DNA of 36,871 bases from Reclinomonas americana ATCC 50394 (GCA_048213135.1 PS015719.1:1-36871); one strand, 5' to 3'. Positions 1 through 30,577 are shown, counted from the first letter of the stretch. A program made the numbers and translations. Notes: generated from the letters alone by a model not told the origin.

Positions 1-6256
<6,256 letters not shown>

Positions 6257-7245: not shown

Positions 7246-7313
7246 ATGCGCCTTCTTGTGAGCATCATGTCAGCCACACGCCTCTCCAGACGTCTTGCAC
7301 AGTTGTCTCACTG

Positions 7314-7352
<39 letters not shown>

Positions 7353-8795
7353 TCTCACACACACAGATGCGTCCCACAAGACTCGCACTTGCCGCCATCA
7401 CCGCCGGCGGTGCTGCCTCTCTCTACCTGCTCGGCAGTGGCGGGCACAGAGCATCCCACTCCACCTCCTCCGCCACGGTCGCACTGCATGCCAGCACGGC
7501 GGCGGAGCAATCGATGACGCCCACAGATTCCGAACTCGGGAGCTGGGTGCACAATGTGCGCATAGTTCTCGACCAGTCGCACGTGGTGCTGTCGTCGCAG
7601 CAGGCGGCGCAGTTGAGCACGCTGGAGCTCATGGCCTCGCGCAGTCAGCGGCCAGTGGATTCCCAGTCGGTGATTTCCGCGCGGCGTGTGGCACAGGCGA
7701 TTGATCACACCTTGTTGCGACCGACCGCCTCCACCGAAGATGTGGTGAAGCTGTGCACGGAGGCGCGAGCGCATCACTTTGCCGCCGTGTGTGTCAATCC
7801 GGTGTATGTGCGACTGGCGGCACACGAACTGAAGAGCACGCCGGAGATTCATGTGGCCGCTGTTGTGGGATTTCCGCTTGGCGCTTCGTGCACGAGTGTC
7901 AAGGTCTTTCTTTTTGTGGCCATGATGGTGCCGCGAGACAGTGGTCACTCACTCAGTCACTCATTCTCTCTCTGATTTCCCCTCGTCAGGCTCACGAGGC
8001 GACAACATGCGTTCGGGACGGTGCTCATGAAATCGACATGGTGTGCCTTCCGTGTGTGACATTCATCGTGTCACCCGCGCCATGACACGGTTTCTGTTGT
8101 CGCAGGTGTTGAATATTGGTGCACTGAAAGAGGGCAATCTGCCGCTGGTGTTGCACGATATTGAGCAGGTGGTGAAAGCCGCTCGTGCTGCGTCACCCAA
8201 GGTATGGTTCGCCCTCCATTGCAGCTGGGTGATTGGGTTTAACTGGGGCGCTGTGAATGTGCGGCAGAGTGTGGTCAAGGTGATCATGGAGACGGGATAC
8301 CTGGCACCACGTGAAGTGGTGCAGGCGTGTGTGATATCGGTGCTTGCCGGTGCCGATTATGTGAAGACAAGCACTGGTTTGTTGGTCGCGCAGAGTGATG
8401 TGTGTGTGTGTGTTATTCCAACCCCATATCAACACACAGGCTTTGCCGCTGGAGTGCCGGCGGCCACGCCTGAAGTGGTCACTCTCATGAAGCGCACTGT
8501 TGGCGAGCTGGCCAAGGTCAAGGCGGCCGGAGGTAAATGATGATAGAGGACCTCGTGTCTGGTCATTTTGCGCTTGTTGACAAACCGCCTTGTCCTCTCG
8601 CTGCACAGGCGTTCGCACGACTGAAGCAGCCATGGACATGATTCGACGTGGTGCTGATCGCATCGGTATGGAGCGCTTTTTTTCGCTTCTATATACCTAC
8701 GAAGCAACTCACGTGCTCTGTGTGCAATGGTGATAGGCACCAGCAGCGGAGTTGCTCTTGTGAAAGGCGCAGCGACTGCTTCGACGGGATACTGA
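7246..8795 (+). CDS. DERA: Deoxyribose-phosphate aldolase (DERA/DeoC) with ~110-aa N-terminal extension
   Basis: Spliced motifs IDHTLL, AAVCVNP, AAVVGFPLGA, HEIDMV, KVIMETGYL, DYVKTSTGF (Schiff-base Lys), VKAAGGVR, GADRIGTSSG and terminal GY-TGA (8793-8795). Start inferred at accaccATG 7246 with a 12-nt coding exon and intron 7258-7366; an alternative ATG lies at 7367. Confidence 0.93.
7318..7348. repeat. (CT)n microsatellite in the DERA first intron
   Basis: CT run just upstream of the acacag acceptor at 7365-7366. Confidence 0.9.
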
Positions 8796-9174: not shown

Positions 9175-12100
9175 GTTGGACATACCGGCTGGAGAGCAGA
9201 CAAGGTGGCGACGAAACCGTCACCAGTGGTGATACCGTCGTCGGGGCGGACATAGGCCTGCACCGATGGCCAGTTCCCGTCTGGCACCGCGACGACTAGG
9301 TATTGCAACAGCACACCACGGCCGATGCTGGCCGGATTCGACCACGTGAGCCGCACTGCAGTGCGACTGAGTGCTGACAACACTGTGACGGCCTGCGGAG
9401 CAGATGGAACGGGATCTACGGCGAAAAAAGTCAGGCACTCAAATCGAGGCGAATGCGCAGCGTGTAAACATTGGTTGTTGACGTACCTCGCGTGCGCTGA
9501 GTGACTATTGGAATCGACAGAGGCCCGTGTGCTCCCGCAGCGTTGCGAGCCACCACGTACACCGTGTACGCAGCAGTTGGAACGAGTGATTCGACGAATG
9601 CACACAAACTGTCGCCGACATCAATACTCTTCATCTCCATGCCGTCATCAAACAGCTCGTCACTGCACGTCGACGAGTGAGAGGATGAACACACAGAAGT
9701 GCGACTCGTGCGGATTCGTTTGTCACCTGCCGGGAAGCGTACGCTGAACCACTCGATAGTAGATGACCACATATGCAGCAGCATTGACCGCCGGCAACCA
9801 CGTCACACGAATCGTCTGCATACCTCGGATGTGAGCACTTGGAAAACACACAAGCAATGCCACGGTACGCAACATCATATGTCGTCTCCTGCACCTGGAG
9901 TGATTCAACGGCCTCAGGAGTGTCTGCATGCAGTCGAACACGTCAGCCACCACCCTCATCGGGTGCGAGCAGCGTGTGGCACTCACCTGGGTCTCCTGGG
10001 GGCTCGGCCTGCGTGAATGCGGCAGGCGAGTCATCACTCTCGCCGACACCGTTGATGGCCGTCACGCGTGCCCGATATAGCGACCCAACGGCCTTCGTCT
10101 CCAGTGTGTACGAGCGTGCCGATGATCCGAGTTTCACTGGCGCAACGGCGTCGTCACCAACAGTCTTGCACAACTCACTGATGAGCCCAGCAACTTCCAC
10201 ACAGAAATTGCACGCAAGCGGCACAATCGATTCACCTCAAAGTACAGCACAAAGCCGTCGATGGGCGAGCTCCCCTGTTGATCGACCGACCAAGCGAACT
10301 GAACGCGGGTTGTTGCACTGAATGCAGAACGCAGCAGTGGCGGCGATGGCACGCGACCGGTGCGCACCACGTTGTCGAGTCCGTTCCCTGCCGTGGCAGC
10401 GTCGACCGCAAACGAAGATGCTTGCTTCGCACCACCCGCGGCGTTTGCTGCACGCACGTCGATGCGATACTCCATGTTTGCCGTCAAGTTTGTGAGAGTG
10501 ACACTCATTCCCGTCGTCGAGACGGTGTACCCGGTCGGGTCGCTGCCGTCAAGTCGCCAACATGTGACATTGTAAGAGAGAATGGAGCCGGCGCCGCCCG
10601 TCTCCACAGGCTCGTCCCACTGCAGTGCAATCTGTGACGGCAGCATATAAGACTCGGCTCACTCAACAGCAGCAGCACATGATCATTGTCGACGTAAGTC
10701 ACCTGATCGGTTCGTTTGCGCGACAACACAGAGACCACCGAGTCGATGGATCCAGGCACTAAGGTTGTGCACGATCAGGTGCGGCAAGTATGAATGGAGA
10801 ACACGAAGCAGACTCACCGGCCGCTCCAGTGGCGGTGGTGACAGTGACATTGTTTGATGGTGCCGTTCCGATAAACCCGTTGAATGCGACAATGTAGAAG
10901 AGACTGCCCCCGATGAATGACAGCCCGTGTCAGACTCATCAACTCTCCCTCTCTCCGTACAACACAACCGCAACTATGTTGTGCCGGCGGCCAGATTGTT
11001 GATTGTCCCTGTTCGCACTGCGGAGAACGATTTCGTCGTGCACGGGAAGCTGCGCTTGCCATAGAAGCCAGTCACTGTGGAGTTGCCGGCGACGGTACCA
11101 TTGACGGCATGCTATTCACCACCCACACGCACACACACAGTGCTGTCAGCGACAGATGTCAAAGTGACACGCTGCGGTACAGACCGACGCAACATAATAC
11201 ACAATGTATTGCAAATCATCGTCGTCGAGACTCGCTTGTGTGCCGATCGAGGAATCGGTCGGAGAGGTCCACGCAAGGCGCACAAAGCCGAATCCGTGTC
11301 CCGTGACAGACAGTTCGGGCACAGGATACGGGGCTGCAAGGGTGCGTGAGAACAGTATGCCGTGGACACAAAATGCTGCACCCCTAAGAGCATGGCACAC
11401 ACCAACAATGGGGTTGGCGGCGTGCGTGACACCAACAGATGCCGCGCCGACGCTGGAACCAGCAACGGCCTGTATGCGGTGCTCGTATGCGAGTCCAGGA
11501 GCTGCGTGCGTCGTGACTCTTAGCCACTGAAGTGAAACGCACAGAAAAGATACACAAGTGCAGCGCACCAGTTGGGACGACGGCAGTGGTTTGCGTGCTG
11601 GGCACGACAGTGTGCCGCATGCAACTGTTCCTGTAGACCTGCACAACCTACAGAGGAGATACAGACAATCAAAAACACAAGGCAGACATTACGCGCTGGT
11701 GACAAGTCTGCATACCCTGTAGGCGGTAATGGGACGGCCACCGCGCACGACTGGCGGAGACCATCGAAGGCCAACCGTAGCATCAGAGAGGAAGGTGACC
11801 TCGAGGTGCGTCGGTGCACTTGGCAACGTGGCTGTGCTTGCAGTTGCGTGAGAAAGTGCATCAGAAAAGCGAGAGGCAACACACACGCACAATTGGAGGG
11901 CACGATGACCGTGATCGGCAGTGTGGCCTCGGAGGAGCCGACTGAGTTGGTGGCACGGAGCTAGAGCGAGCAAGCATGTGAGATATCAGACCGCAGAACG
12001 GCACGGAAACAGGCAAGCCCACAGACGAACCAGGTAAATGTAAGTGGTGTCGGCCTGCACACTGGTGTCCGTCGCCGTGAGACTGTCGACACCGACTGTG

Positions 12101-15100
12101 ACCACCGACTTGAAGGCGACGCGGACAGTCGACCGCTCCAGCTGCCCCACCAATTCACGGTCAGTGTAGACTGCGCGCAACAACACACGAGAGGGGGGAC
12201 GAAACAGTGTACGCGGCATTGGTAAGAAGTGGAGTGGAGCCAAAGTGTGGATTCTGCATCCATGTGAACGTGACACCATCGGCAGCCACTTTGGTGACGG
12301 TGAATAATATGGGTGGTCCGGGCAATCGCTGCTCGGCGTCGTCTGTTGTCACCTCCACCGCCTGGCGAGCACACACAGAGAAATCAACATCGAGAGAAGC
12401 AGAGCGCGTGTGTGGCGCAAGACTCACATTGGACAACTTGACAAAGGCGGCCGTGTCGGCGGTCACCGTTAGCACGGGTACAGAGAAGGCGTTGGTGCCA
12501 GCCACTCTGCGCAGACAGCACCCGATGGTCAGTGGCCGCACAATAAGAAGACTGATGGACCGACTAATGCAACTGTAGCAGGTATGTGGTTGCCGGTTCC
12601 AGGCCCTGCACATCGGCCACCCAACTCACTTGCGCGGCCACACTCGCCTGTGTGGCCGGCACCAGTGCAAATGATGCACTCTGCAACGTCACTTGCGGTG
12701 CAGTAGAATCTGCTAGGGTGGCGTACACGCGAAACGGCGTGTTGGCCAGCAGTTCGCCTCCGCCCAGCGACTGCGGCGCTGTGATCTCGAGTCGCACCGA
12801 CTCGGACGCCACACGGGACACGGCATTCACGACCGGTGCCTCCGGAATGGAACCGACACGCATCGTTGTCTGCAACAGCGAGATGCTGATGGGTCCCACG
12901 GCGACGTTGTTGCTCAGCGCCACCGTGCAGCGGTACAGTGAATTGGGATGTAGGGCACTGCCGCCCGGCACACGCAGTCCGATCACTGCCACTTGCGCGC
13001 CTGACACGTACTGGACCGCTGTGTATGAATGTGCTCAGTAAACAGTCGCACTCTTGCGTGCAAGCACATTATCGGAGTGGCGCACCACTTGTGTTGAATT
13101 CGCTGTATTCCTCGCGATACTGACCAAGCGACGCCAGCACATAGTCGTTGCTGTAGAATTACATACACCGTTAAGTCGGGACAGGAGAAACCATGTGTGA
13201 GTTGCACGCGATGACAACGCACCCTGACTCAACACCAGCGATCCGTACAACTGCTCCCGACAACGCAAGAATCCCGAGCGACAGCGGTTCAGTCCACCGC
13301 AGCACGAAGGAGACTGAGGTTACCGCGGCAATCTGCACACAGGCTCACGTGAGACTCAAGTAAGTCTGACAGGGAAAGAAAGGGATCGACATCGTGTACA
13401 GACTGTTGGGGAAACAACTTTGCCAGGCGCAGAACCGGCCGCCGACAGCGACACAGTGAGCACGTTGCTGTACACTGTTGTTGCGACGTTCGACGTGGTG
13501 TTGACACGCATCTGCATGCGCTTGTGAGCGAGTGATTTGCCAACAATTCCTCTGTAAACAGAGTGGACGCACCCGTACTTGAGCCACCCGACCAACCAGA
13601 CTGTCGACTCTGATCATGTTGTACCGCTGCGTCGATGAGACCGGCGCGAAACCTACGTACGACGCAGCGGTCCACGTGGCCGAGTCCACACGAACTTCAA
13701 TAGTGTACGGATTGTTCGCCAGTAGGGGCTCGACAATCTGCACTGGTGCCTCCCACCCAAAGGCGAACGATGAAACAGTGACCTTGCGTGCCAGAGAATC
13801 GAGAGTAGGCGCGCTCAATGATGGCCCCGACGCGGCAGTTGTCGACACAGCAAATGATACGACGCTCTGACCTCGATTGGCCGCGTTTCGTGCAGCAATC
13901 TGCTCGTGACTCATTGTCAAACAAAAGGAGTGCCAACACAGACAAGCGTGCGCACGCACCGCCACCGTGTACTTGGTTTGTGGAAGAATCGGGTTGGCGA
14001 TAGTGGAGGCGAAATCCAAGCGAACAAACGAGCCGTCAACCTCCGTACTCAATCCCGCCGAGTTGCCAACAAAATCCACCTGCGGACCGCCAAATTTCGA
14101 CAGACAGGCCCAGTAGCGTGCGTCATCACCATCCGCAGTCCCCACAGGCGCAGCACCCATGTTCAGAGGAGGCCTCACGAAAATCTGTCGGACTTGTCGG
14201 TTGTCACTGAAACACACACACACACACACACGTGTGGACAATCGGCGCACCGAAAAGGACGAGCCGGTGATAAAGTACGCTGCCGCTGCAGTGGGTGCTT
14301 CGGGTCGACCTACTCGCAGTGCTCATCAGCGCCACATATGACTTTCATGTGTGAATTACAGGCGCACTGACTCGAACGTAACTGGCAGCCGTAACCCACG
14401 ACACGACCGACGTGCGTGGCCCAACAATGCTGGAATCTAGAGTGCGCACATACGCCTGCATCGCCAGCTATGAGACTCCTCCATACAGACAGTGGCTGCA
14501 CGCATCAGGAGACAGCACTCACTTGCATCTCGTACGTGCCACCCGGCAGCAACTGACCCAGTGTACACGAGTATTGCTGACCGACAAAGACATGAGATCC
14601 GGTGAGCGACGTGCACGACACCACAGAGAATGACGAGCCGCTGCCGCCGCTGCTCGTGCGTCGAAGTTCAACAACGTAGGGATCCGATGGCAGACTTGTG
14701 CCTGCAACACGTGCACCCGGCGAGTTGGAGAATATCGTGCCGGCCAAGTAGTCATCGCTGATGCTTTGTACCACTGCGCGCGACGGTCAGCAACGAACAT
14801 GAACTTGTGACTCACACGCACACACACACACAACGGACTCACCGGTTGCACCCGTATCGGTAATATCAACGATACTGACGGCACCGAGAGCAGCCGGTGC
14901 GGTGCTTGGTGAGTTTGCAAATGCGAATGAATCGGAAATGACTCGGCGTGAGCTCGGCAGCCCACCTCGGCCATTGTCAACAATCACCTAGCTCACGACC
15001 ATCAGTCCATACCACACGAGGAAGAAGTCACCAATAACACAACGCACTTGAAACTGCGTCTGCGTAATCACGTTGCTGGTCTGCAGCACAACGATGAACG

Positions 15101-17367
15101 AATTCGCCGTCTTGACACTGGTGGGTTGCGCGCCGCCGGCCACACCAAGAACTGCCATCAATCAATGGCCGTGAGATGCGAGATGGCGCAAAAGTGCAAG
15201 AGTGCGATGCAACTCACCCGGGTACGCCACTGCCGTCGACGGCAACGCATTCTCCACCGAACAGCCGCCGGAGCAGTCGGTGAAAGCATAGTCGAGAGAC
15301 AGTGTGGATGCGACTGGCTGTCCAACATTGACTGGGCGTGACACACAGAGAGCCACCCAATCGTAGCCGATCTAAAGAATAACATCGTGAGCGATTACAT
15401 CTCTCAGCAAGAAGCCATCTCATGCAGCGCACACGCACGCACCGCCATGGAGCGAGTACTCGATGCGCCTGCGCGGTTGCAGAGAACGGGCGGATTGCTC
15501 TGCGCTCCTGCTGCGATGAAGGGAACCGCCACTGTGGCCGTCGGTCCTGCTCCATGGTCATTGACAGCGGTGACCTGCGCGTGCGATGGGATGAGTGCGT
15601 GGCCTGCGCGGATGCAAGCGTTGTCGCCGCACAAACCTGCACCGTGACCGCTTGCGTGCAGTTTTCAATACTGGTGACAAGCGTGCGGTCAGTCATGTCG
15701 GTGCTGGTGATGGAGGCGGTGCATCCAGCCGTCGACGGCACCGCCATAATGCTGTACGTGAGATCGCCCAGCAGCCCCGTGCCGCCGACAACCAGCGGTA
15801 CGACAAACGACAGCGATGCCGACACAGTGGTCGCAGTGGGCGTGCGCCACACGCGCGTCAGCGACAGGGAACGAACCGCAGAAGGCACTGCACAGCATGT
15901 CTTGTCAACACGCACGATACAGCAGCAGCAGCAGTAGCTCGACGCAAACCAGCGGCTGTGGCTGTGGTGGTAAACGAGTATGCCGCCACCGTCGCAGTAT
16001 CCTGTGTCACGCCAACACCAAGAGCATTGACGGCGGCCACACGGACTCGGTATGTCATCACTGGCATCAGTCTGCCGACGACGATCTGTTCCAATGCCCC
16101 AGCGAGCGTGCGTGAGACACACGGTGAAACCATCAGCTGTGGAGGAACCATCGAGCCCACCTGCGCGCCCGTAACACGGCCGTTTGCGGTGAGCAACCGA
16201 ACTGTGCCGCTGGCCGGCGTCCACGTGGTGGCGCTCAACTCTGCCACCTGCACGCAACAAGCTCAGCGCGCAGCCACTTCCGATGTATTCTCTTGCGCGC
16301 ACGCTCGCTGTCTCACCTCCACATGAAAACCCGTAATCGTACTCCCAATGGTGACCGGAACCGACCAGCTCAGCAGCGCTCCATTGGCGGCCACGGCCTC
16401 CGCGGCCAGCACCGACGGCACAGAACCCGGTGTCTGCTTCCCACTCATGGTGTGGAACGACAGCGGCTGCACCGACCACGTACCGAATCCCACGCTATTG
16501 ACTGCACGCACACGCGCCAAGTAGGCCGCGTCGGGTGTGAGGTCATCCAACGACGCCACCTGTCGCTTCTCACAATCTGCATTGAATGTGTTGGTCGACG
16601 CCGGCGGCGGCGCCTGCCACGAGCTGCCCGTCACATCGCTGCGCTTGACTTGCACCTGATAGTACGGCGCCACCAGCGTCGTCATGCCCCACAACAGGGG
16701 AGCATTGAACGAAATCACCGCACCCGTGCTGGCGAGCCGATCCACGAGTAGAATCGACGGCGCCGCCGGTGTGCCCGAGATCGGCATGGTAAACGGAAGG
16801 GCAGTCGACGGCGTGCCACGACCATACGCGTTCACTGCGTACACCTGCTGAGGGCGTGAGTCCCGCGTGCGATGGGGAATGAGAGAGAGAGAGAGCGCGA
16901 AGCAGTCTCACCACAGCAGAGTACGAGGCACCCTGCACGATGCGATGCTCGAACTCGGTAAGCACCGCCGATCGCGCCTCGCTTCCATCGACCGTCACTG
17001 TTACATCCACTGGCACCGCGTCGCTCACCACCACGGCCTCGGTGGTGGTTCCGGCGGTGCGCACAGACGACACCACCACCTCGTATCCAGTCACCGCCGC
17101 ATTGCCCCAGTTGAAGGGCCCATCGTCCCACGCCACCGTCACACTCGCTCCTTCATCGCTCTGCCCCACGGCCTTGATCTGCGCCGCCGTGTGAACGTCG
17201 ACAAAGACACTGAGAGTGAGAGAGACAGAGACAGAGGACGCAACGATGGCCACCCCGCGCGGTGCACCGGGCGAGCCAAGCACCGGTGAGTCAGCACGGA
17301 CCAGAAGCAGTGGAACAAAGAAGAAGAGGAGGAGGAGGAAGAAGAGAAGGCATTCTTGCCGCCGCAT
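8842..17367 (-). CDS. Large secreted or cell-surface protein of tandem fibronectin type III repeats, probably GPI-anchored
   Basis: N-terminal signal peptide MRRQECLLFFLLLLFFFVPLLLVRA (ATG 17367). Repeated FN3 signatures (LxW..P, L.P...Y...V.A.N..G): VYAVNAYGRG, VRAVNSVGFG, VAAVNALGVG, VTAVNDHGAG, IAARNAANRG, VRAANAAGG, VTAINGVGES, VVARNAAGA, VRAINGYGSS. The last exon (8842-8967) ends in a hydrophobic stretch at the stop. Many introns; not every junction was traced. Confidence 0.85.
9144..9171. repeat. (GA)n microsatellite within an FN3-gene intron
   Basis: GA run, reading (TC)n on the transcribed minus strand. Confidence 0.9.
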
Positions 17368-17418: not shown

Positions 17419-19475
17419 ATGGCGGAGAGCGAGGTGAAGACGGTGATTATCGGCGGCGGAGTCGGCGGTGCCGGCAAGGCCGGTGTCTCCATCGATGACT
17501 TGGTGCGCGTCTGCTACTCCACGGAGGCCTGGGAGACTGCAATTCCGCACCCCATGGCTCGTGCACGAGTGGCCATTGATCGCGCCGCAGTGCTGCGCAT
17601 GACCGCCATTGCCGCGTCGGCTGCAGCCGGCAGCAGTGGAGGGGAGGAACAAGCGGCTTCGGTGGCGGCGTTGGCCGAGGGCGTCTTGCAGGGTGGACTG
17701 CCAGTTGCGTGAGTCGGGGGAGATGTGAGGACATGCACACCTCCCCCCTTGGCGCACGCACTCCCTCTTCCTCTCCCTCTCTTTCTCCCACTGCATGATC
17801 ATTACCTTGCACACATGCGGCGCACTTGCCCCCCAACTGTGCCTCACATTGTCGCGGATTGCATGCTCATGTTGGATGATGATGTTGACGATGATGACAT
17901 GCAGATTGCGCCCGAGTTTGTTCGTGGTCTGCTTCTGGTGCGTGCCGCGGCAGCATCGAGCACCGCGCACTCGGGAGTCTCCAAGAGCACCATTGAATAC
18001 TTGGTGGCGCTGCTCAACAATGACATGACGCCGGTGGTGCGTGCGACTTGTCCCTCACTGTGCAGTTGTGTGCATCAGTCGTGTTCTCAATCTGAGCCGA
18101 ATGCAGCTCTTTGTTCCGGATAGCAACGGTGCGGAGATTGACCTGCGTGCCTACTTTGCTGCATTGCTGCTTGGTCGTGGTGCGTGCCCGCCTCTCTCTT
18201 TGAGTGTGTACGCAGCAGAGCTGATGGCTGGCATGATCAGGAAACTGCATCTGCAAGGGTGCGTTTGGTGAGCTGTCTGGTGCCCTGTCGTTCTTCAAGG
18301 TGTCGCTGCCGACGCCACCGACTGTGACGGAGATCGACTTCCTCGCGCTGAATGCGGCTGCTACGCTGTCGATTGTGGTCGCTGCCGTGACGCAGTATCG
18401 TGCAGAGGTGTGGATGTGAGTGTGCGCGTCCTTTGTATGACGGTGTTGTCTCATCACGCCATTCGTGCATGCTAGTCGCTGGTGGAGACTGCTGACCTCG
18501 TGGCGAGTTTGTACTTTGAGGCACTGGGACGACCGGCTGNNNNNNNNNNNNNNNNNNNNNNNNNNNNNNNNNNNNNNNNNNNNNNNNNNNNNNNNNNNNN
18601 NNNNNNNNNNNNNNNNNNNNNNNNNNNNNNNNNNNNNNNNNNNNNNNNNNNNNNNNNNNNNNNNNNNNNNNNNNNNNNNNNNNNNNNNNNNNNNNNNNNN
18701 NNNNNNNNNNNNNNNNNNNNNNNNNNNNNNNNNNNNNNNNNNNNNNNNNNNNNNNNNNNNNNNNNNNNNNNNNNNNNNNNNNNNNNNNNNNNNNNNNNNN
18801 NNNNNNNNNNNNNNNNNNNNNNNNNNNNNNNNNNNNNNNNNNNNNNNNNNNNNNNNNNNNNNNNNNNNNNNNNNNNNNNNNNNNNNNNNNNNNNNNNNNN
18901 NNNNNNNNNNNNNNNNNNNNNNNNNNNNNNNNNNNNNNNNNNNNNNNNNNNNNNNNNNNNNNNNNNNNNNNNNNNNNNNNNNNNNNNNNNNNNNNNNNNN
19001 NNNNNNNNNNNNNNNNNNNNNNNNNNNNNNNNNNNNNNNNNNNNNNNNNNNNNNNNNNNNNNNNNNNNNNNNNNNNNNNNNNNNNNNNNNNNNNNNNNNN
19101 NNNNNNNNNNNNNNNNNNNNNNNNNNNNNNNNNNNNNNNNNNNNNNNNNNNNNNNNNNNNNNNNNNNNNNNNNNNNNNNNNNNNNNNNNNNNNNNNNNNN
19201 NNNNNNNNNNNNNNNNNNNNNNNNNNNNNNNNNNNNNNNNNNNNNNNNNNNNNNNNNNNNNNNNNNNNNNNNNNNNNNNNNNNNNNNNNNNNNNNNNNNN
19301 NNNNNNNNNNNNNNNNNNNNNNNNNNNNNNNNNNNNNNNNNNNNNNNNNNNNNNNNNNNNNNNNNNNNNNNNNNNNNNNNNNNNNNNNNNNNNNNNNNNN
19401 NNNNNNNNNNNNNNNNNNNNNNNNNNNNNNNNNNNNNNNNNNNNNNNNNNNNTGCGATGATGAATACTGCTCTCT

Positions 19476-19522
<47 letters not shown>

Positions 19523-22500
19523 TCTCTCTGCCCTTCTCACGCCCCTCTCACACCCCACGCAGGGCATGATCCGCTCGGCAGAGGTTTTGCGTGCCGTCAC
19601 CGACGGAAGCAAGCTGCTGATCAAGTCGACGACGGCCAAGTTGGGCGATGAGGCCGACGAGGCTCCGGCGGCGACCGGTGGTGAGAGTGCTGCTGCGGGT
19701 GGCGATGACAAGGGTCGACGAAAGAAGGGTGGAGCGGCGGCGCCTGCCGGAGGAAAGAAGGGAGCAGCGGCTGGCAGTGGCAGTGGCGCTGAGTCCACCG
19801 CCGAGGCCGCGGTGGCGCCCGGTGCGTGGTCATCCGTGTGTCAGGCTCACGGTGTCGCTCGCGACGCACTCTCCGTCAGTCACGGTTTGTCGACGAGTGC
19901 TTGGTGTGTGCTGCGTGTGTGTCAGAGCACCTTATCACCACTGGCGTGTAGAGCGTGTTGCGGTGGAGTTGCGCAGCGTGGAGCCCGGCAGTGCTGCAGA
20001 AACAGTGTCGCGTGGCGGTGCATTCAGTGGAGCCGTCGTGTCGCAAGTGGCTGCGTCGTTGGCCTTCACTCTGCAGTCGCTCGCGGCGGCCTCGTACGCG
20101 CGCTTCCGTGAGCTGGTGCAACAGGGGGCGGCCGAGGCGCACGCATCTGAGCTCTTTGAGGGTCGCTTGAGCGATGTCGCGGTGCGTCGCACTCTCCGTT
20201 TCGGTGCTCATCTTTTCCTTGAAGCGACTCATGGGAACCTGTGAATGTTGTTTTGGCAGGGTTTTGTGGTGCGTTCTGCCGCCGTGGTGGAGCGCAACTT
20301 TGAGGTTGTCGGTGGTGGTGACGCGACTGAAGTTCCGCCAGCATGGCGACGTGCACTGTTGACGTCGAGCGTGACCGATGTGTTGCTGTCGGTATGCGAA
20401 GCGCGGCCGCGCTTGTCTTTTCCTCTTTATGTCGACGACTCATTCGCTTGAATGATAGGTCCTCTCGGCCGAGGCGGCGTGCTCGGTGCACATTTTGGGT
20501 GCGATGGAGAAGACGTTGCGAGACAAGGTGTTGGCGAAACTCGGCGACAGTTGCGTGTGCTGGGACCCCAACGCGCCATTGATCCACGCTAACCGCCTGC
20601 GCGCAGAGCCGGCCCCAAAGAAGCTGCCGAGTCTCGTTCTTGGCAAGGGCACTCGCCTGTATCGCGATCTCCTGGCCGAGCGCCACACCGTGCCTGCGTC
20701 GGTGTGTGTGCTTCTTGCATCCGACCATGTGTTCACCAGTCGCTGACAGTATGTTGCACAATGCACAGAACCCAGATGAGGTGCAGCAGCTGGTGCAAGC
20801 ACTCACTCTCTTCTGCGACCCGTTCGACGTGGCTCACCGACAGGCCACTCGCGAAATCGTCGAGTCGCTGACCACCACCAGCATGCGCAAGGCCAAGACA
20901 GCCAAAGTGCGCGAAGTATTCGTTGACCACTTTTGGCACGCACCAGTGTGTCTCATTACCCGCTGCAGGGCGCACGCGACTACGGACCAGCTGAGATGGC
21001 CATTCGCGAAAAGGCCTTCAACATTATCACGCGAGTGTTTAAGCGTCACGGCGCCGTCACGATCGACACGCCGGTGTTTGAGTTGAAGGAGACCCTGACT
21101 GGCAAGTACGGCGAGGACTCCAAGCTCATCTACGATTTGGCCGACCAGGGAGGCGAGCTGCTGTCGCTTCGCTACGACCTCACGGTGCGCGAGTCGTCAG
21201 CCGCTGCCTTTCTTGTTCAGCACTCACTTAATTATTGCTCGAATGTGTTCGCAGGTTCCGTTCGCCAGATACGTCGCCATGAATGGTGTGGGCTCCATCA
21301 AGCGCTACCACATTGCTCGAGTGTACCGCCGCGATCAGCCGGCCATGAACAGCGGCCGGTATCGCGAGTTCTATCAGTGTGTTGCGTCATCTTGCTGCCT
21401 GAGCATGGTGGGCACTACCTGCTTGCAGTTTCCTCATGCACGTTGCAGGACTTTGACATTGCTGGCTCGTTCTCGGCCATGCTGCCCGACGCAGAGGTGG
21501 TCAAGGTGCTCGAGGAGATTCTGAGCGAGTTGGACATTGGCTCGTTCATGATCAAGGTCAGTGCAAGTGTCCACCTCTCTCTCTTGTGAACTGTCCTCGT
21601 CGCTGATGCGTTCTTTTTTTGGTCGGGTAGATCAATCACCGCGTGCTGCTCGACGCTATGATGGCGGTGTGTGGCGTGCCAACGAACAAGTTCCGCACCA
21701 TCTGCTCCTCCATCGACAAGCTCGACAAGGTGCGATGAGACATTGCAAGTGTCTGCGCCGGTGACTCACTAACTGTCGCCGCGTGCAGAACTCGTGGGAG
21801 GAAGTGCGTGCGGAGATGGTGAACGAGAAGGGTCTGGAACCGGAGGCCGCCGACCGCATTGGCGAATTCGTGTCGCTGAAGGGTGTGTGTCTCGTGAGTG
21901 CTAGTGGATTGATTGCACACTTTTTCACCTGACTCCAAATGTGCCACAGGCAATCCGCACGAGCTGCTCGAAGTCCTCCGTGGCAACGCGCTGCTCGCAG
22001 CCAGTGCTGACGCACAGCGCGCTTTCGAGGATCTCAACAAGCTGTTTGACTACCTGCGCGCCATGGACGGCCTCAACCACGTGTCATTCGACTTGAGTTT
22101 GGCTCGTGGCCTGGACTACTACACGGGAGTCATCTACGAGGCGATGGTCACCAGTGCGTATCTACGTCGCACCACCGTACCGCATGATGGTTCTGAATTT
22201 GTGCCATTCGTGCAGCCACCGATCGTGTGGGCAGCATTGCTGGCGGCGGTCGTTACGACGGCCTGGTGGGCATGTTCCACCCGTCAGGCAAGCAGATTCC
22301 GGCCGTGGGAGCCTCGATCGGCATTGAGCGTGTGTTTGCATTGTTGGAGGAGAAGGAGAAGCAGGTGCGCGCGCGGTGTTGTGTGTGGCACATATTCCCT
22401 CGCCTGCTGGCTCATGACGTGGTGTCTCGCACAGCTTGGACTGCACGAGCAGACTCGCGCGTGCCCGTCACAGATCTATGTGGCGACTATTGGCAAGGGT

Positions 22501-22912
22501 CTGATGGAGGCCCGCCTGGCCATCGCCAGCGAATTGTGGCGTGCCGGTCTGCCAACGTCGTACTCCTATGCCGAGAATCCCAACATCAAGAAGCAGCTGG
22601 ATTCGGTGCTGGAAGATGCCATTCCGTTTGTCGTGGTGCTGGGTGAAGACGAAGAGAAGGCTGGTGTGGTCAAGGTGCGCGATTGTTTCCTCTTGTGTGT
22701 GTACGACGATAGCATACCGTCTTGCCGTATTGTGCTCACTGTGCTGCTGTGTGCAGGTAAAGGACATGGCGCTGCGAACGGAGGAGACGGTTTCGCGGGC
22801 GGACATGGTCGCCCACTTGCAGCTGTTGTGCGCGAGACCACCCATCCCGGTGGTTCCACAGCCAGCTGGTGAGGGTTCGGCTGGCGAGGGCAGCGGCTCG
22901 TCGTCACAATGA
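17419..22912 (+). CDS. HARS: Cytosolic histidyl-tRNA synthetase with N-terminal histidine-ammonia-lyase-like domain
   Basis: HisRS core: [57 protein letters not shown]...[53 protein letters not shown], then an anticodon domain and TGA 22910-22912. Upstream exons match HAL/PAL segments (VRGLLLVRA...HSGVS...[39 protein letters not shown]). An N gap at 18540-19452 lies inside the N-terminal domain. Confidence 0.93.
18540..19452. other. Assembly gap (913 N)
   Basis: Run of N. Confidence 1.
19479..19529. repeat. (TC)n microsatellite in a HisRS intron
   Basis: TC run upstream of the cacgcag acceptor near 19562. Confidence 0.9.
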
Positions 22913-23036: not shown

Positions 23037-26000
23037 CTATCGGGTATCCCAGTCGCCCCACGCCCGTGCCACTAACCGGCGCTGACTTTCGCGAACTAGT
23101 TGCGTGCTTCGCGGGTTCACCGTCGGTCGGAAAGACGGCGTGATATTGGCGTAGCGCATAGTGTCGTCGGACACTCGTGGTGGTTCCGGATTGGCGGGGT
23201 CGCCCTTGGCAAAGTACAAGCGATCCACAATGTTGGCAATCTCGCGTTGCGAGCGCACCACTGGCGGCGATACGCGACCGCTAGCGGTCGGAGACGTATC
23301 CCGCACCGATGTCAGCGACGGCACGCGTGGCCGGCGCTGCACCGAGTCTCCGCTTGCCGAGCCCATCGAGGCAGCTGAAGACGACAGGCCGCTCTCTGGT
23401 GGCCGCAGCTGCAAATGGAATGGAACAATCTGCGGCGTCTCTGCCGAGCTGGCGCCACCGGACTGGGCGGCGGCATGTCCATTCGCAGCTCCAGGTTGGA
23501 ACAGACGATGCTCGTACTCCGTGGCCGACCCAATACCGCTGCTGGGTGTGGCACCACGCTGTCGGGAATTGGGGGTGACAGAGCGGCGGCCGGCACGCAC
23601 ACCGGGCGATGGTGAACGCGACGAGGCCACAACGCGGTGGCGCAAGAAGCTCTCAATGGCCCCGCTGCTGGCCTCGATGCTCTCCAGTGCACGCTGTCGC
23701 TCCTCTTCGCTCCGCATACTCGGCTCTTGCGGCGGCTTGTACAGACGCTCCACCACCTACGCACACACTCGGTCAAACAATGCACTCTCACAGTCTTGTC
23801 CTTTGTCGCCACGTACCGGTGTTCCTGCATTCCGCCGCTGCGCGAGTCGCTGAGACTTTTGATTAATGTCAGGCGACGGCCTTCGCTCCTTCTCTGCCTC
23901 CTTCTGCGTCCGCTCCGCCAGCTTTCCGCGATGCTCCTCCACGCCCTTGGCCCAGTTCTCCAGGTCCTCCAAGCCACGCTGCAGCTTCTTCGACTTGTCG
24001 TTGATGTCGGGAGTGAATGTCAACTCCTTGTCGGTCTGGCTCTTGACCAGCGCAGCCGTCTGTTGTAGCGCTGCTTCGCGTGCTCGCAAAAACGCCTCCT
24101 GCCGCGCCAACAGGCTGCCGCTCTTGCGCTGCGACAGCAGCTGCACGCTCTTGGCGCTGATCTTGGGCGAAAAAGTGGTCTCTGCTGCCTCGCGCGCCTC
24201 CAGATCGGCACGCAGCTCAGACACACGCTGCTCACGGCGGGCGAGGAACTCGCGCTGTCGCTGTTGGAGCGACATGCGACGAGCTCCGTTGGGGATCTGA
24301 GACATCTTGCGATCCATGATGGCGCGACTGCGCGGTGCCATTTGCCAATGCTCAGGCTCACCCCGCTCGGCACAATGCTCGTGAGCTGCAACACACCTCA
24401 GCACACAAGCAGTACTGGCGAGAAAGAGAAGAAGAGTCCGCGAAAGCATACCGTGCTGATGCAGGTGGTGCTGACGATCGTGTTCCGCCTTGGCGTCGTC
24501 GTGCACGTCCGCATCCGCCTCCTCCTTGTGGTTGGCAGAGGCCTGACTGTGGCGACCCGAGCGCCGACCAGGGGACGACTGACGCGACCAGCCAGTCACA
24601 CTCGAAGCACGGGTGCTTCGGCGGCGACCACTGCTGCCAGGCGTTGCCGACGCAGTGCCACCACCANNNNNNNNNNNNNNNNNNNNNNNNNNNNNNNNNN
24701 NNNNNNNNNNNNNNNNNNNNNNNNNNNNNNNNNNNNNNNNNNNNNNNNNNNNNNNNNNNNNNNNNNNNNNNNNNNNNNNNNNNNNNNNNNNNNNNNNNNN
24801 NNNNNNNNNNNNNNNNNNNNNNNNNNNNNNNNNNNNNNNNNNNNNNNNNNNNNNNNNNNNNNNNNNNNNNNNNNNNNNNNNNNNNNNNNNNNNNNNNNNN
24901 NNNNNNNNNNNNNNNNNNNNNNNNNNNNNNNNNNNNNNNNNNNNNNNNNNNNNNNNNNNNNNNNNNNNNNNNNNNNNNNNNNNNNNNNNNNNNNNNNNNN
25001 NNNNNNNNNNNNNNNNNNNNNNNNNNNNNNNNNNNNNNNNNNNNNNNNNNNNNNNNNNNNNNNNNNNNNNNNNNNNNNNNNNNNNNNNNNNNNNNNNNNN
25101 NNNNNNNNNNNNNNNNNNNNNNNNNNNNNNNNNNNNNNNNNNNNNNNNNNNNNNNNNNNNNNNNNNNNNNNNNNNNNNNNNNNNNNNNNNNNNNNNNNNN
25201 NNNNNNNNNNNNNNNNNNNNNNNNNNNNNNNNNNNNNNNNNNNNNNNNNNNNNNNNNNNNNNNNNNNNNNNNNNNNNNNNNNNNNNNNNNNNNNNNNNNN
25301 NNNNNNNNNNNNNNNNNNNNNNNNNNNNNGTTCTGCGCCACCGATGGCGGCGCCTGAGTAGGCGGCGGTGGTGGCTGTCGCGGCTGACGGGCTGGCGGCA
25401 GCGGATCACCCGGTCGCAGGGGCAGGCGCGTAGCATTGGTCACCAATCGCATGGTGGCCTCGGCGTCCGCCGCCGACAACGCATCCACGCCCTTGGCCTC
25501 CACCGCCAAGCGTGTCACCTGACGCGCCAGGTGTCGTCGCCAACACCGCTGAATCACAGTGGCGGCGTAACTCTCCACAGCTGCGACAGCAATCAAAATA
25601 TACACAAAATCAGCAGGTGAAGGGGGAAGCAATCGAACAGTGTGTAGCAAGACTGACAACGCAACAGTGGAACCACTGCATGGCAAAGCGATCGAGCACT
25701 CGTCGCCATGCGCGTTGTATTCTGCGAGCTGCGCTCACTCGACGAGCGTGGTGCGCCAGCCAGGCCATCTGGATGGTGCATGCTGCACCTTGCTCTCGCG
25801 CCTCTTGCAGGGCGTGCTGTTGCTGCTCGGCAAGCTTCTTGCGAGCAATGAATCCTCTGTTCAAAACAGTGATATGATTCAGCGGGCTGTGCGTTGACCG
25901 ACACACAAAAAACACTGTACCTCCACGCCGACTGAATGAGAATGGCGGCACCACGGAGGAACCAGCAGAACGAGCGGGCGCGGTTGGTGAAGGTGTAGGC

Positions 26001-29000
26001 CCGAATCGACCGCTGCAGAATGCCAGCTGCACGCTGGTACACCACCGCCGCTGCCTGACACAGTTTCGTGTACAGTTCCGGCTGCAGCGCCACCGACTGA
26101 TTGCCAATGATCCACTCGCCACGCGGTGCGTGCGTCTGCAACAACAGCTCGCACAGCTTCTTGGAGAACAGGCGTCGCACCACCTCCTGCACGACGGCTC
26201 CGTCCGAGAACGTCGAGTCGGCATCGTGCGATTCCTGCGCGAACGCCACTGGTGAGTCTTGATATGCGGTTCTCCCTCCCCACTCGCCGCGGTCGCAACT
26301 GCCACACGCTCGCAGCCACGGCGAAGACTTCGTCGAGCCGTGTGCTCAATCAGACCTCCACCCAACTGCTCCGAAAAGGCCGACAGCGGCACAAACACCG
26401 TGCGCAAAAAGTGTCGCAGATGCAGGATCGATCGGAGAGCCGAGCAGCCGGGTGCCGACACGAGCTGCACGTTGTCAGCGTAAGATTACACAGAAACGCA
26501 CACGCCAACATGGACAGGTGTGACTCACATCGCCGCACAACGCATTAAAGTATGACACATCGGCACCGCCAAGAAGCGACATCTCGAGTGCCACAGTTCC
26601 GTATGCTGAGCACACCACCCAAAGTCAGCACGAACACAAANNNNNNNNNNNNNNNNNNNNNNNNNNNNNNNNNNNNNNNNNNNNNNNNNNNNNNNNNNNN
26701 NNNNNNNNNNNNNNNNNNNNNNNNNNNNNNNNNNNNNNNNNNNNNNNNNNNNNNNNNNNNNNNNNNNNNNNNNNNNNNNNNNNNNNNNNNNNNNNNNNNN
26801 NNNNNNNNNNNNNNNNNNNNNNNNNNNNNNNNNNNNNNNNNNNNNNNNNNNNNNNNNNNNNNNNNNNNNNNNNNNNNNNNNNNNNNNNNNNNNNNNNNNN
26901 NNNNNNNNNNNNNNNNNNNNNNNNNNNNNNNNNNNNNNNNNNNNNNNNNNNNNNNNNNNNNNNNNNNNNNNNNNNNNNNNNNNNNNNNNNNNNNNNNNNN
27001 NNNNNNNNNNNNNNNNNNNNNNNNNNNNNNNNNNNNNNNNNNNNNNNNNNNNNNNNNNNNNNNNNNNNNNNNNNNNNNNNNNNNNNNNNNNNNNNNNNNN
27101 NNNNNNNNNNNNNNNNNNNNNNNNNNNNNNNNNNNNNNNNNNNNNNNNNNNNNNNNNNNNNNNNNNNNNNNNNNNNNNNNNNNNNNNNNNNNNNNNNNNN
27201 NNNNNNNNNNNNNNNNNNNNNNNNNNNNNNNNNNNNNNNNNNNNNNNNNNNNNNNNNNNNNNNNNNNNNNNNNNNNNNNNNNNNNNNNNNNNNNNNNNNN
27301 NNNNNNNNNNNNNNNNNNNNNNNNNNNNNNNNNNNNNNNNNNNNNNNNNNNNNNNNNNNNNNNNNNNNNNNNNNNNNNNNNNNNNNNNNNNNNNNNNNNN
27401 NNNNNNNNNNNNNNNNNNNNNNNNNNNNNNNNNNNNNNNNNNNNNNNNNNNNNNNNNNNNNNNNNNNNNNNNNNNNNNNNNNNNNNNNNNNNNNNNNNNN
27501 NNNNNNNNNNNNNNNNNNNNNNNNNNNNNNNNNNNNNNNNNNNNNNNNNNNNNATGGGAAAAGTGAAATCGCGCTGCGCGCACCCCAGGATGGCTGGCTT
27601 GCATTTCCAGGTAGGTTCCGTCGCCAGACATGGAGAACGACGATTGCACGTGCAACTGGCCGCCGGCACATACCACGCGCTTCAGCTGGCACAGAGTAGA
27701 GACAAATGCCGAGAAGCTGTGGGATGAACTGTGCGAGTGCATCGTCACTGCGGAAGAATAAAGGGGTGAGCCAGCCAGGCACACACACGCACGCATGGTT
27801 GCGAAGGGTACACAACTCGTACACGGGAGTCCTTCAGGGCTGAGTGTGCGCATGTACATGTCCATGGCATCCCGAGTGCACGAACTCAGGCGCGCAGAGA
27901 ACGACGAGTCGGAGAAGCGAATGCCCTCGTCACCGTATCGCTGGTACACCGAATCCACAACTTGTCCCAACATCCACGAGTGCATCAAGTGCGAAGTAAC
28001 AAACAACGGCACCGCGGCTGGCGACAGTGGAGTCGGTGCGTCTGCGGAGGCCTGATCGGCGGCAGTGGACGACTTGCTGGCATACGCAAAGTTCTCGGGC
28101 ATCGACAGGAAGCTCAACACAGGCTGGTCGTCGGCCGCGTTGGGGCCGACAAGCTTGCTGTTGATCTGCTCCACCAGCCACGACATGGTTGACAAGACAC
28201 CACGGCGCACAAGCGCGTCAAACATGTCCTCCAGGCGACGACCGCAAGCGTGACCCTCTGCAACAAACAGGCGTGAGTTTTCACTCAGTTGACGATGACC
28301 ATGGTGAGTGTGCTGCGTACCTCGAGCCGCCGTCTCCAGACGATCGAGAATAAACTCGGCTAATGTGCCGCCACTTGCAATCTGCGGAATGGATGCAAAG
28401 GTTGGCACGCAGAAGCACACAGGGAAATGCAGGAGGAGCAGACGCACCGTATTCTCCACGGCCACCGTCGAAAGACCGGCGTCCAGCACCTCCTTGGCGC
28501 ACTCTGGATCCGACAGCAGCACGTGTAGCACGTAGCGATCGAGATCCAGACCCGAAAAGTGGCAGGCACACTTGACCAGCATGCTGAGATCGGAAAAGAC
28601 AAAGGTGCTGTTGGTGAGCACGCCGTCGCGGTTCACCAGTAGCGCATCGCGAGACGTCAGCGACGGGCCACGCGAGCTGTAGCACGACAGGGCGATGAGG
28701 CCAGCCAAGTGTCGCAGCACGCCGTGCGTTTGTTCCGGAGACAGGAAACGGGAAATGAGCTTGAGCAGTCGCGGCCACGACTGCACGTCGGATGACAGCT
28801 GGTCCGCCGCTGCGCCAGCACACCAACACATCAGCGACCTGAAGGGGAAGGGGGAGAGGGGAGAGGAAAAGAAGAGAGCAAACCATGACTGTCGATCTTG
28901 GCGAAATGCTGCAAGAACGGCAGGTAGGTGTTGCGGTGCTCGACAGGCGACGTCAAAATAAAGTTGAGCACCGACAGGCGACGAAGTTCGGTGCGCGAGA

Positions 29001-30577
29001 AATCCAAAAACTGCCCCTCGCAGCTCGTGAGTTCGTGAAACGGCACACAATACGTGCAAGAGAAGTTGTCGCACCTGACTAACAACAGAGTAGTGAAGCA
29101 CAAAACGAGAGGCATGATCGCCCTCGTCGAAATAAATGTCCAGTCGCACGCCAGGAATCACCGACGGCGAGGCGGTGGTGCGCAGATGCGGGACGCCGAT
29201 ATTTACAGCACCGGCATCCGCCAGCGTGCTGGGCGGTGGCACGAAGTAGCGCAGCAACTCCCAGGCGTTCAGGAGACGCTCTGGATCCGGACCGAGTGCG
29301 TCGTGACTGATGTGCACACGCAGTCGTCAGCACACCCGATGTGCAGAGAGGCAATCACATGTGAGACGCAACGGATGCACTGGGGCGCCGTACAATCTCT
29401 GTCGCAACCACGACGGCGTGGCGGCACCGGGAGAGTGAAAGCGCGACGGATGTATGCCGGAGCGCACCGGCGATCCATCAATGTCGGGAACATGCGTACT
29501 GGCGAGCAGCGAGATCAACTCGGACATTAGCTGCTGCTTGGCGTGATCGCTCGGCCCGTTGAGCACCATCAGGTGCGACGTGCGATGTTGCGTGACCAGC
29601 AGCAGGCCTGCAGCAACAAAAGGGGAGATGTCGGCGAGCCGATAAAGGAGACCAGGGGAAAACTTACAACAGACCGTCAATCAGCATCTGCTTGGCGGTG
29701 CGATACAGGCCCCTGCTGCCCCACGGCAACGCCAGTCGCGACATCGGAACCGCATGTGCAAAGAGGGCCTCCTCGTCGTCCTCTCCCTCGCCGCCCGCCC
29801 CACTCCTATTCACACGATGCAGACGCAGGTACTGATGCAAATCCTCATCATCGCCGTCCACCGACGGCACCGCCGGCACCTGCAACGACAACGAATACCT
29901 ATGCGCGATCCCGCTCATTCTCAGGAGCCACACAAGGGTAAAAACACAGCAGGAGAGAAACGCACCCTCCACGTCTCTCCGTGACGCGCGACGCTGATGA
30001 TCTCGAGGTTGTCGTCGTCGTGGTCGAATCCAGCTGCAACATGCGCTCTGTCAATGGCGCAGCCACGGCAGTCACACTCGAGTCCTCCTCATCGCGCAGC
30101 ACCGGCACCATCGACGATTCGCTCTCCGCCAGACTGCGCAACACACACGACGCGAGCAGCGGTGCTCTCTGCAACTGCAAATGGTCCGCACCACACCACA
30201 GACGAACACAAGAGAGAGCGAGAGACAGAGAGAGAAGGTGTCAACATCAACCCACACTGTGTCACGCACACGCGCGACGTGGAGAGAGAGACAGACCTGT
30301 GCATGTGAGACATCGACCAGAGCCGCCACAGAAGTGGTATCGCGATCATCGGACTCGAACGGAATCACCGCCAAGTGCGGCAACTGCACATCCATCACTA
30401 CTCCCCCCCGCACACAGTATGAGTGCACACACGAGCAGCGCAAGAGAGTGCATGAGACAGACCGCGAGCGCCGTGCACATCGGTTCTCCGCACACGCACT
30501 TGCACCCATCGATCCTCACTGCTCACAATCACACCCTGCACCCACTCGCCACCACGTACACACGCCCAACAGCGCAT
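23037..30577 (-). CDS. Highly divergent myosin-like protein: SH3-like N-terminus, degenerate motor, ~5 IQ motifs, Pro-rich linker and repeat-containing tail
   Basis: Myosin landmarks appear in the correct order: MRCWACVRGGEWVQGVIVSS (SH3-like); HLMVLNGPSDHAKQ (P-loop position); PERLLNAWELLRYF; GVRLDIYFD; LSPEQTHGVLRHLAGLIAL; MFDALVRR...MSWLVEQINSKL; YQRYGDEGIRF; FHFSH/AYGTV; GEWIIGNQSVAL (converter); IQ motifs LIQSAWRGFIARK, TIQMAWLAHHARR, RIQRAWRR, VIQRCWRRHLAR. Stop TAG at 23037-23039. Linkage of the tail (23037-24666) across gap 24667-25329 is inferred. Confidence 0.72.
24667..25329. other. Assembly gap (663 N)
   Basis: Run of N. Confidence 1.
26641..27553. other. Assembly gap (913 N)
   Basis: Run of N. 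Confidence 1.

Follow-up and report, generated by a model that had tools for sequence, protein, structure and literature searches.

A probable myosin-derived gene with a dismantled nucleotide site in Reclinomonas americana

A stretch of 36,871 nucleotides (nt) from Reclinomonas americana ATCC 50394 (GCA_048213135.1 PS015719.1:1-36871), which was analysed in its entirety and is called the window below, carries on its minus strand a multi-exon gene whose predicted protein resembles a myosin in the order of its parts and departs from working myosins at the positions of the nucleotide-binding motifs. The window as a whole is eukaryotic DNA with a guanine-plus-cytosine (GC) content of about 0.58, and it is interrupted by four runs of N, two of which cut the gene considered here.

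Gene structure and coding integrity

The exon model is a prediction joined by eye from three minus-strand reading frames. It comprises 10 exons and eight GT..AG introns of 59-128 nt, and the frame is restored at every junction. The gene was recovered in two sequenced parts. Part A encodes 877 amino acids in six exons, from the ATG at 30577, the first ATG downstream of an in-frame stop, to the edge of an N run at 27554 (introns of 65, 128, 67, 67 and 66 nt). Part B encodes 313 amino acids in four exons at 26464-25330 (introns of 59, 64 and 73 nt) and is open into a second N run. The features of the gene, all predicted and given in the direction of transcription, are as follows.

30463..30577, minus strand: exon 1, starting at ATG 30577, with an SH3-like N-terminal segment (amino acids 3-28) at 30494-30571
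30297..30397, minus strand: exon 2, reached through a 65-nt GT..AG intron (30398-30462), frame restored
29966..30168, minus strand: exon 3, after a 128-nt intron (30169-30296), frame restored
29675..29898, minus strand: exon 4, after a 67-nt intron (29899-29965), frame restored
29373..29607, minus strand: exon 5, after a 67-nt intron (29608-29674), frame restored; P-loop equivalent GPSDHAKQ at 29534-29557
27554..29306, minus strand: exon 6, the main head exon, after a 66-nt intron (29307-29372), frame restored, open into the N gap; switch I equivalent at 29150-29179, HO-helix-like DAL..WLVEQINSKL at 28151-28219, LSFLSMPENF (switch II) at 28088-28117 and relay-end YQRYGDEGI at 27920-27946
26641..27553, no strand: assembly gap of 913 N, covering the head from the FHFSH strand to the SH1-like helix, loop-2 region included
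26308..26464, minus strand: first exon past the gap, with an SH1/SH2-helix-like region at 26387-26422 and 26327-26374
25921..26248, minus strand: converter/IQ exon, after a 59-nt intron (26249-26307); converter end at 26061-26162, IQ1 at 25974-26024 and the first half of IQ2
25654..25856, minus strand: IQ exon, after a 64-nt intron (25857-25920); second half of IQ2, IQ3 at 25739-25780 and IQ4 at 25688-25726
25330..25580, minus strand: last exon before the second gap, after a 73-nt intron (25581-25653); IQ5 at 25522-25560 and a proline-rich stretch running into the N run
24667-25329, no strand: second N gap, which ends the sequenced part B

Several further details of the model concern the head. 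Exon 3 has a second possible acceptor at 30174, which is likewise in frame, and exon 5 carries a long loop-1-like stretch in addition to the P-loop equivalent. Exon 6 alone provides 584 unbroken codons (27554-29306), and most of the head is thus independent of any splicing decision. Besides the landmarks listed above, ERLLNAWELLRYF lies at 29243-29281, the string TTASPSVIPG at 29150-29179 and LSPEQ..LAGLIAL at 28688-28744, all on the minus strand.

A first-pass annotation of this DNA, made from the sequence alone, had placed a probable catalytically dead myosin at 26060..30577, with frames intact over many introns. The claim of intact frames was borne out by the eight frame-restoring introns and 1,190 open codons, and the strings that it had singled out occur on the minus strand where it had placed them (GPSDHAKQ at 29534-29557 and LSMPENF at 28088-28108). 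The upper end of its span agrees with the ATG at 30577, whereas the lower end falls short, with the IQ motifs at 25522-26024 lying below 26060. The gene is also cut by the N runs at 26641-27553 and 24667-25329.

The introns fall into a narrow size class, six of the eight measuring 64-73 nt (65, 128, 67, 67, 66, 59, 64 and 73 nt in order). Part A has a GC content of 0.635/0.490/0.673 at codon positions 1/2/3, part B one of 0.684/0.524/0.712, and the introns one of 0.537. The codon-position values are similar to those of the ORFs (open reading frames) of an adjoining histidyl-tRNA synthetase gene (0.618/0.423/0.668 and 0.611/0.511/0.646). The intron sizes, the kept phases and the codon-position GC all favour a real coding gene at this locus.

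The first alternative to be weighed is a relic: either a myosin gene that has fallen out of expression or selection, or a recent unitary pseudogene, with a frame that has stayed open by chance. Such an origin would fit the complete lack of homologues in the searches described below and the extreme divergence of the protein, but it is improbable. A decayed pseudogene is disfavoured because 1,190 codons joined across eight introns stay in frame and because the codon-position GC is like that of the neighbouring synthetase, a housekeeping gene. At such divergence, this length of sequence free of stops and frameshifts would be hard to maintain without selection on the frame; all eight intron phases are kept, and two IQ exons score above the Pfam cut-off.

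Likeness to myosin and the state of the nucleotide site

The comparison relied on a profile built for the purpose. Fifteen viral loci were retrieved with a degenerate DNA pattern representing the canonical P-loop, and six of them encode myosin heads (Pfam, 348-405 bits) and were aligned; this first alignment retrieved 80 metagenomic loci, and 54 long intron-free ORFs from these together with three viral sequences make up a 57-sequence profile. Myosin_head was present in all 16 reference sequences checked (348-849 bits). Among them, 10 of 10 profile members checked match it, nine over the full length (636-849 bits) and one as a split match (351 bits), and the tails of the checked members are typical of several myosin classes (DIL, MyTH4-FERM and myosin II tail). 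A second reference alignment contained 29 myosins. The six viral heads, used here as references only, lie on contigs of giant-virus type and are intron-free and 816-906 amino acids long (Pfam, 348-405 bits); IQ motifs are present in two of these proteins.

When part A was aligned with the 57-sequence profile by hhalign, query residues 1-866 fell on template columns 25-646 with a score of 30.5 and a P value of 0.0098; one of 76 shuffled sequences reached this score, and the reversed sequence scored 18.2. Part A extended by the first 118 amino acids of part B scored 30.4, which none of 77 shuffles reached (maximum 26.2), and with both runs pooled one of 153 shuffles was found at the real score. 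For exon 6 against the 29-myosin alignment, P was 0.0052. The global mode of hhalign returned a degenerate one-column alignment. The hhalign alignment, which was blind to the earlier notes on this DNA, recovered the same pairing of landmarks: the SH3-like start, LEAFGN, switch I, the F-x-x-EE..LHLGN helix, DAL..WLV..IN, switch II and EEY..EGI were all paired with their myosin counterparts, and LMVLNGPSDHAKQ was paired with iLISGESGAGKT of the P-loop at a posterior confidence of 6-9. In hmmsearch, the best single domain in the head was the DAL..WLVEQINSKL site, the same site as the best hhalign match.

To resolve the likeness along the protein, 11 segments were each aligned alone, and seven of them matched best at collinear columns (27-52, 158-188, 227-237, 306-346, 409-437, 484-500 and 718-752). 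The exon 1 segment (amino acids 1-72) fell on columns 27-52 (P 0.013; reached by one of 42 shuffles), and the exon 5 segment, taken alone, fell on columns 158-188 around GESGAGKT (P 0.084; five of 42 shuffles). Four segments of exon 6 (S4, S5, S7 and S8) account for columns 227-237, 306-346, 409-437 and 484-500, the strongest of all segments being the HO-helix piece at columns 409-437 (P 0.00049), and the converter segment (S11) fell on columns 718-752 (P 0.022). No match was obtained with segments S2, S6, S9 and S10, which represent inserts, the region preceding the P-loop and the SH1-like helix exon; S2, the exon 3 region, was without a significant match to the myosin profile, and S10, the SH1-like exon as a separate segment of 60 amino acids, matched nothing in it. 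Combined over the segments, the Fisher statistic was 62.3 (chi-square p 1e-5), a value reached in none of 42 shuffle rounds (maximum 38.5) and none of 20,000 resampled sets (maximum 57.8). An increasing run of seven occurred in 3% of the resampled null sets and in none of the 42 shuffle rounds. The hhalign P values are well calibrated, as 4.5% of 462 shuffled pieces fell at P <= 0.05.

For the region that follows the head, hmmsearch was run with the filters off. Part B scored 18.9 bits over profile columns 712-896 (converter end and IQ), which none of 500 shuffles reached (maximum 3.8), and hhalign gave an E value of 4e-6 and a probability of 87%. The match of converter and neck thus falls just behind the head, on the columns where the profile has these parts. 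The IQ-free beginning of part B (amino acids 1-118) scored 19.5 in hhalign (P 0.05, template 633-755); 14 of 352 shuffles reached this score, none of them starting in columns 600-680. In this alignment, exon 26308-26464 is paired with template 633-680 (..phfIRCIKPN..QLry.GvlE..), where posterior confidence is low. Five IQ-like motifs can be recognised by eye, one of which (IQ2) is split by an intron, and the Pfam IQ model (PF00612, cut-off 20.3) was matched by exon 25654-25856 with 22.7 bits and by exon 25330-25580 with 24.0 bits.

At the nucleotide site, the aligned positions differ from those of the reference motors. The P-loop GESGAGKT is replaced by GPSDHAKQ, which retains G, S and K at positions 1, 3 and 7 and has P, D, H, A and Q in place of E, G, A, G and T. 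These losses include the last glycine and the Mg-binding threonine, and the sequence departs at two positions from the Walker A pattern GxxxxGK[ST]. Posterior confidence at the P-loop was 6-9 in the full-length alignment and 3-8 for exon 5 alone. At switch I, NSSRFG is replaced by SPSVIPG, with the second serine and the arginine gone. At switch II, DIxGFE falls on LSFLS-MPENF, with the aspartate and the glycine gone; the glutamate may be retained if a one-residue insertion is allowed. By comparison, D..GFE is present in all 57 reference motors, as are GESGAGKT and NSSRFG, although the retrieval patterns selected for the latter two. A six-frame pattern scan of the whole window revealed none of the three myosin motifs in canonical form, and the sole generic Walker A string in the window lies on the other strand at 23114-23137 and is unrelated. 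The N gaps cannot conceal canonical motifs, since all three sites lie in sequenced DNA. Two observations of the first-pass annotation, the correct order of the myosin landmarks and the degeneracy of all three nucleotide motifs, are upheld, the former by the hhalign results (P 0.0098 and 0.0052) and the collinear segments, the latter at the aligned positions and by the lack of a canonical copy elsewhere in the window.

On the basis of the collinear profile statistics and the ordered architecture (SH3-like N-terminus, head, SH1-like helix, converter and five IQs), a myosin ancestry of the protein is very probable. A P-loop NTPase without the residues in question does not coordinate Mg-ATP and does not sense the gamma-phosphate. 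Because the residues for both functions have been lost, the protein most likely neither binds nor hydrolyses ATP and would be unable to cycle, as far as its sequence indicates. Overall, it is likely that the locus is a real gene for a myosin-derived protein whose nucleotide pocket has been dismantled and which most likely serves as an ATP-inert, non-motor module. Where the first-pass annotation had spoken of a pseudo-motor, myosin descent and motif loss are supported, and its term 'catalytically dead' stays a sequence-based inference.

Alternative explanations and neighbouring genes

A number of results weigh against the reading of this gene as a myosin derivative without a working nucleotide site. 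Pfam Myosin_head (PF00063), a match to which had been named in the first-pass annotation as a check and the lack of one as a refuting outcome, was not found: none of six pieces matched at E<=1 and none of 34 tiles and exons at E<=10, where the speed filters of HMMER may mask sub-threshold Pfam matches. Word-indexed homology searches, including one with the neck region at E<=10, gave no matches in all three cases. An exhaustive phmmer search against 1.84e9 cluster representatives gave none at E<=0.001, and phmmer against PDB sequences gave none at E<=10. In the ESM Atlas, a Myosin_head cluster ranked only fourth (0.85), under rotavirus NSP2 (0.87), and is a lead at best. A single-sequence AlphaFold2 model was too poor to use, with a mean predicted local distance difference test value (pLDDT) of 39 and a predicted template modelling score (pTM) of 0.24. 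The head alone was not significant in hmmsearch --max (-2.0 bits; reached by two of 500 shuffles), and hhalign against the six viral myosins alone indicated no relationship (P 0.51). With the Pfam, phmmer and PDB searches all empty, the kinship with myosins is visible only through the purpose-built profile and its shuffle controls. Taken singly, the hhalign P values are only around 0.01, and significance arises from combining segments whose first boundaries were picked after the full alignment had been viewed. Blind fixed windows, which gave p 5.4e-5 (13 windows of 80 amino acids) and p 3.2e-4 (nine windows of 110 amino acids), partly answer this worry. In addition, about one-tenth of the head lies inside an N gap, and the alignment confidence that is high at the P-loop is low to moderate at switches I and II.

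The last point bears directly on the idea that the protein is an active, unorthodox motor or NTPase, with a rebuilt nucleotide pocket or with switch alignments that are out of register. The G, S and K kept in the P-loop, the possible persistence of the switch II glutamate and the confidence values at the switches would be compatible with activity. Still, this idea is quite improbable: with Walker A broken at two positions, neither a Walker A motif nor a canonical switch occurs in any frame of the gene, and far milder changes are described as abolishing ATP binding in myosin-18 (PMC3122231).

Very little probability is likewise given to an unrelated, lineage-specific IQ-motif protein with an N-terminal likeness to myosin that arose by chance. 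The absence of any myosin call from Pfam, phmmer, PDB and Atlas searches and the single-test P of about 0.01 are what such a protein would lead one to expect. Against it stand the seven of 11 segments in collinear order, with a combined p of 1e-5 that was not equalled in 20,000 null sets, and the converter and neck found at the right columns immediately behind the head; moreover, the top match in both HMMER and hhalign is the myosin HO-helix signature in its right place. An artefact of the assembly or the model, in which canonical exons are hidden in N gaps or have been mis-joined, is the least probable explanation: although the gene is broken by two N runs and its exons were joined by eye, both switches lie inside the 584-codon exon 6, and the P-loop lies in exon 5, linked to it by a 66-nt frame-restoring intron.

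In view of the short ORFs on either strand of the window, the eight frame-restoring introns and a histidyl-tRNA synthetase ORF closest to the human enzyme in the PDB, a trypanosomatid origin of the DNA, with which introns would not be expected, was considered and rejected. Several other genes or candidate genes were recognised in the window. Nearest to the gene, past the second gap, is the following feature.

23040..24665, minus strand: possible tail of the gene or a separate gene; frame open from the border of the gap, two candidate introns (24386-24451 and 23757-23816)

From the border of the N gap, this feature reads through 302 codons without a stop before it meets a TAG at 23757-23759. 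The frame is preserved across a candidate GT..AG intron of 66 nt at 24386-24451, and a second candidate intron, of 60 nt (GTACGT..TAG) at 23757-23816, would remove the TAG and join the ORF 23040-23756. In the encoded protein, the motifs F-x-P-x-I-(N/S)-x-K-S and (D/E)RLY recur. It matched no Pfam family, and its nearest ESM Atlas clusters are unnamed hypothetical proteins of protists (0.93-0.94). It may be the tail of the pseudo-myosin, or a separate gene that begins at Met 24317.

The histidyl-tRNA synthetase gene occupies 20927-22869 on the plus strand with at least two exons (tRNA-synt_His, 43 and 29.7 bits; HGTP_anticodon, 43.3 bits), and its closest PDB sequences are those of the human cytoplasmic enzyme (E 1e-25), not the trypanosomatid entries. 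Several exons with fibronectin type III (FN3) domains (fn3, 53.1 and 52.8 bits) at 10137-16907 on the minus strand probably belong to one large multi-exon gene for an FN3-repeat protein; proteins of this kind are unusual outside animals and their relatives. On the plus strand, two ORFs at 7262-8537 show weak DeoC/LacD aldolase matches (19.5 and 16.5 bits, cut-off 23.8) to the front and the middle of the model, and probably form a spliced gene for a deoxyribose-phosphate aldolase-like protein. A run of ORFs rich in heptad-like E/L/Q/R at 1563-5549, also on the plus strand, probably represents a long coiled-coil protein gene, with Pfam matches that are weak and sub-threshold. Two of the N runs (18540-19452 and 26641-27553) are identical in length (913), and the other two measure 663 and 136. 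These lengths look like scaffold gap estimates, not measured sizes, and ORFs that read through N runs are for this reason regarded as artefacts.

Relation to known myosins and possible role

Dead or motif-less myosin heads are already known from class XVIII and from the myosin-like domains of fungal chitin synthases. What makes the present case extreme, as judged from its sequence, is the combination of a full architecture with total motif loss and drift beyond standard detection. A keyword search of the literature, which was not exhaustive, found no description of a stand-alone myosin without all three motifs.

The order of parts, with an SH3-like N-terminus, a head, a converter and tandem IQs, is the same as in the IQ-neck myosins (classes I, V, VII and others), and the HO-helix signature DAL..WLV..IN..L is common to these and the present protein. 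The difference from conventional and unconventional IQ-neck myosins lies in the nucleotide site, of whose motifs (D..GFE, GESGAGKT and NSSRFG) the 57 reference motors carry all and the present protein none.

Standard profiles have no difficulty in identifying the myosin-18 head as that of a myosin. Class XVIII (Drosophila myosin-18, MYO18A/B) is the best functional analogue, with which the present protein would share an ATPase-inactive myosin head; yet here all three motifs are lost and the head is invisible to Pfam, whereas the P-loop of myosin-18 is near-canonical. Class XVIII is marked by a near-canonical P-loop, a PDZ/KE extension at the N-terminus of its long isoforms and a coiled-coil tail; in the present protein, no PDZ/KE extension was found by Pfam on any piece, and the P-loop is not conserved. 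The class has been described as without ATPase motor activity (PMC7900500). For Drosophila myosin-18, one account reports no ATP binding, ATP-insensitive actin binding and a role in filament tethering, along with a P-loop of the form GRSGAGKS and switches with point changes only (PMC3122231).

A precedent for complete motif loss is provided by the fungal chitin synthases: the shortened myosin-like domain of Chs5 of Magnaporthe oryzae is reported to have lost all three motifs (PMC3276572). Domains of this type are shortened and fused to chitin synthase. The head described here, in contrast, exceeds the usual length; the protein begins with an SH3-like segment and includes a converter and five IQs, after which comes a proline-rich stretch. 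Pfam detected no chitin synthase domain in its sequenced part or in the downstream ORFs, part of the tail being in an N gap. Limulus myosin III has an N-terminal kinase domain; compared by description only, the present protein differs from it in that no kinase domain was found. That myosin, since reclassified in class 21, is another that has been cited as not binding ATP (PMC3122231).

In the proposed mechanism, the head with its large insertions would form a static, ATP-inert module, and the IQ neck would bind calmodulin-like light chains. If the head shell still touches actin, it may act as an ATP-insensitive tether or anchor, by analogy with Drosophila myosin-18; otherwise, it may serve as a protein-binding scaffold. 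A further proposal, put forward here only tentatively, is that this is the first stand-alone pseudo-myosin, in which a lever arm, five light-chain sites and a head shell have been kept under selection while the pocket was erased and the sequence drifted past the reach of Pfam and phmmer. It would then represent a lineage-specific class, possibly acting as a calcium/calmodulin-regulated, ATP-independent actin anchor or scaffold.

The present value of the finding is limited, resting as it does on one draft locus. Inventories of myosins compiled with Pfam- or BLAST-type searches can overlook such genes entirely, and a lineage-specific class of this kind, if it exists, would escape any inventory built on the Pfam model or similar searches. 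More generally, pseudo-enzymes derived from motors reveal which parts of a motor stay useful without its engine. In the present gene, every nucleotide-site motif is lost, far beyond what is seen in myosin-18, while head shell, lever arm and light-chain sites are kept. Provided that the gene is expressed and conserved, it would provide a natural test of what a myosin head can do without a nucleotide.

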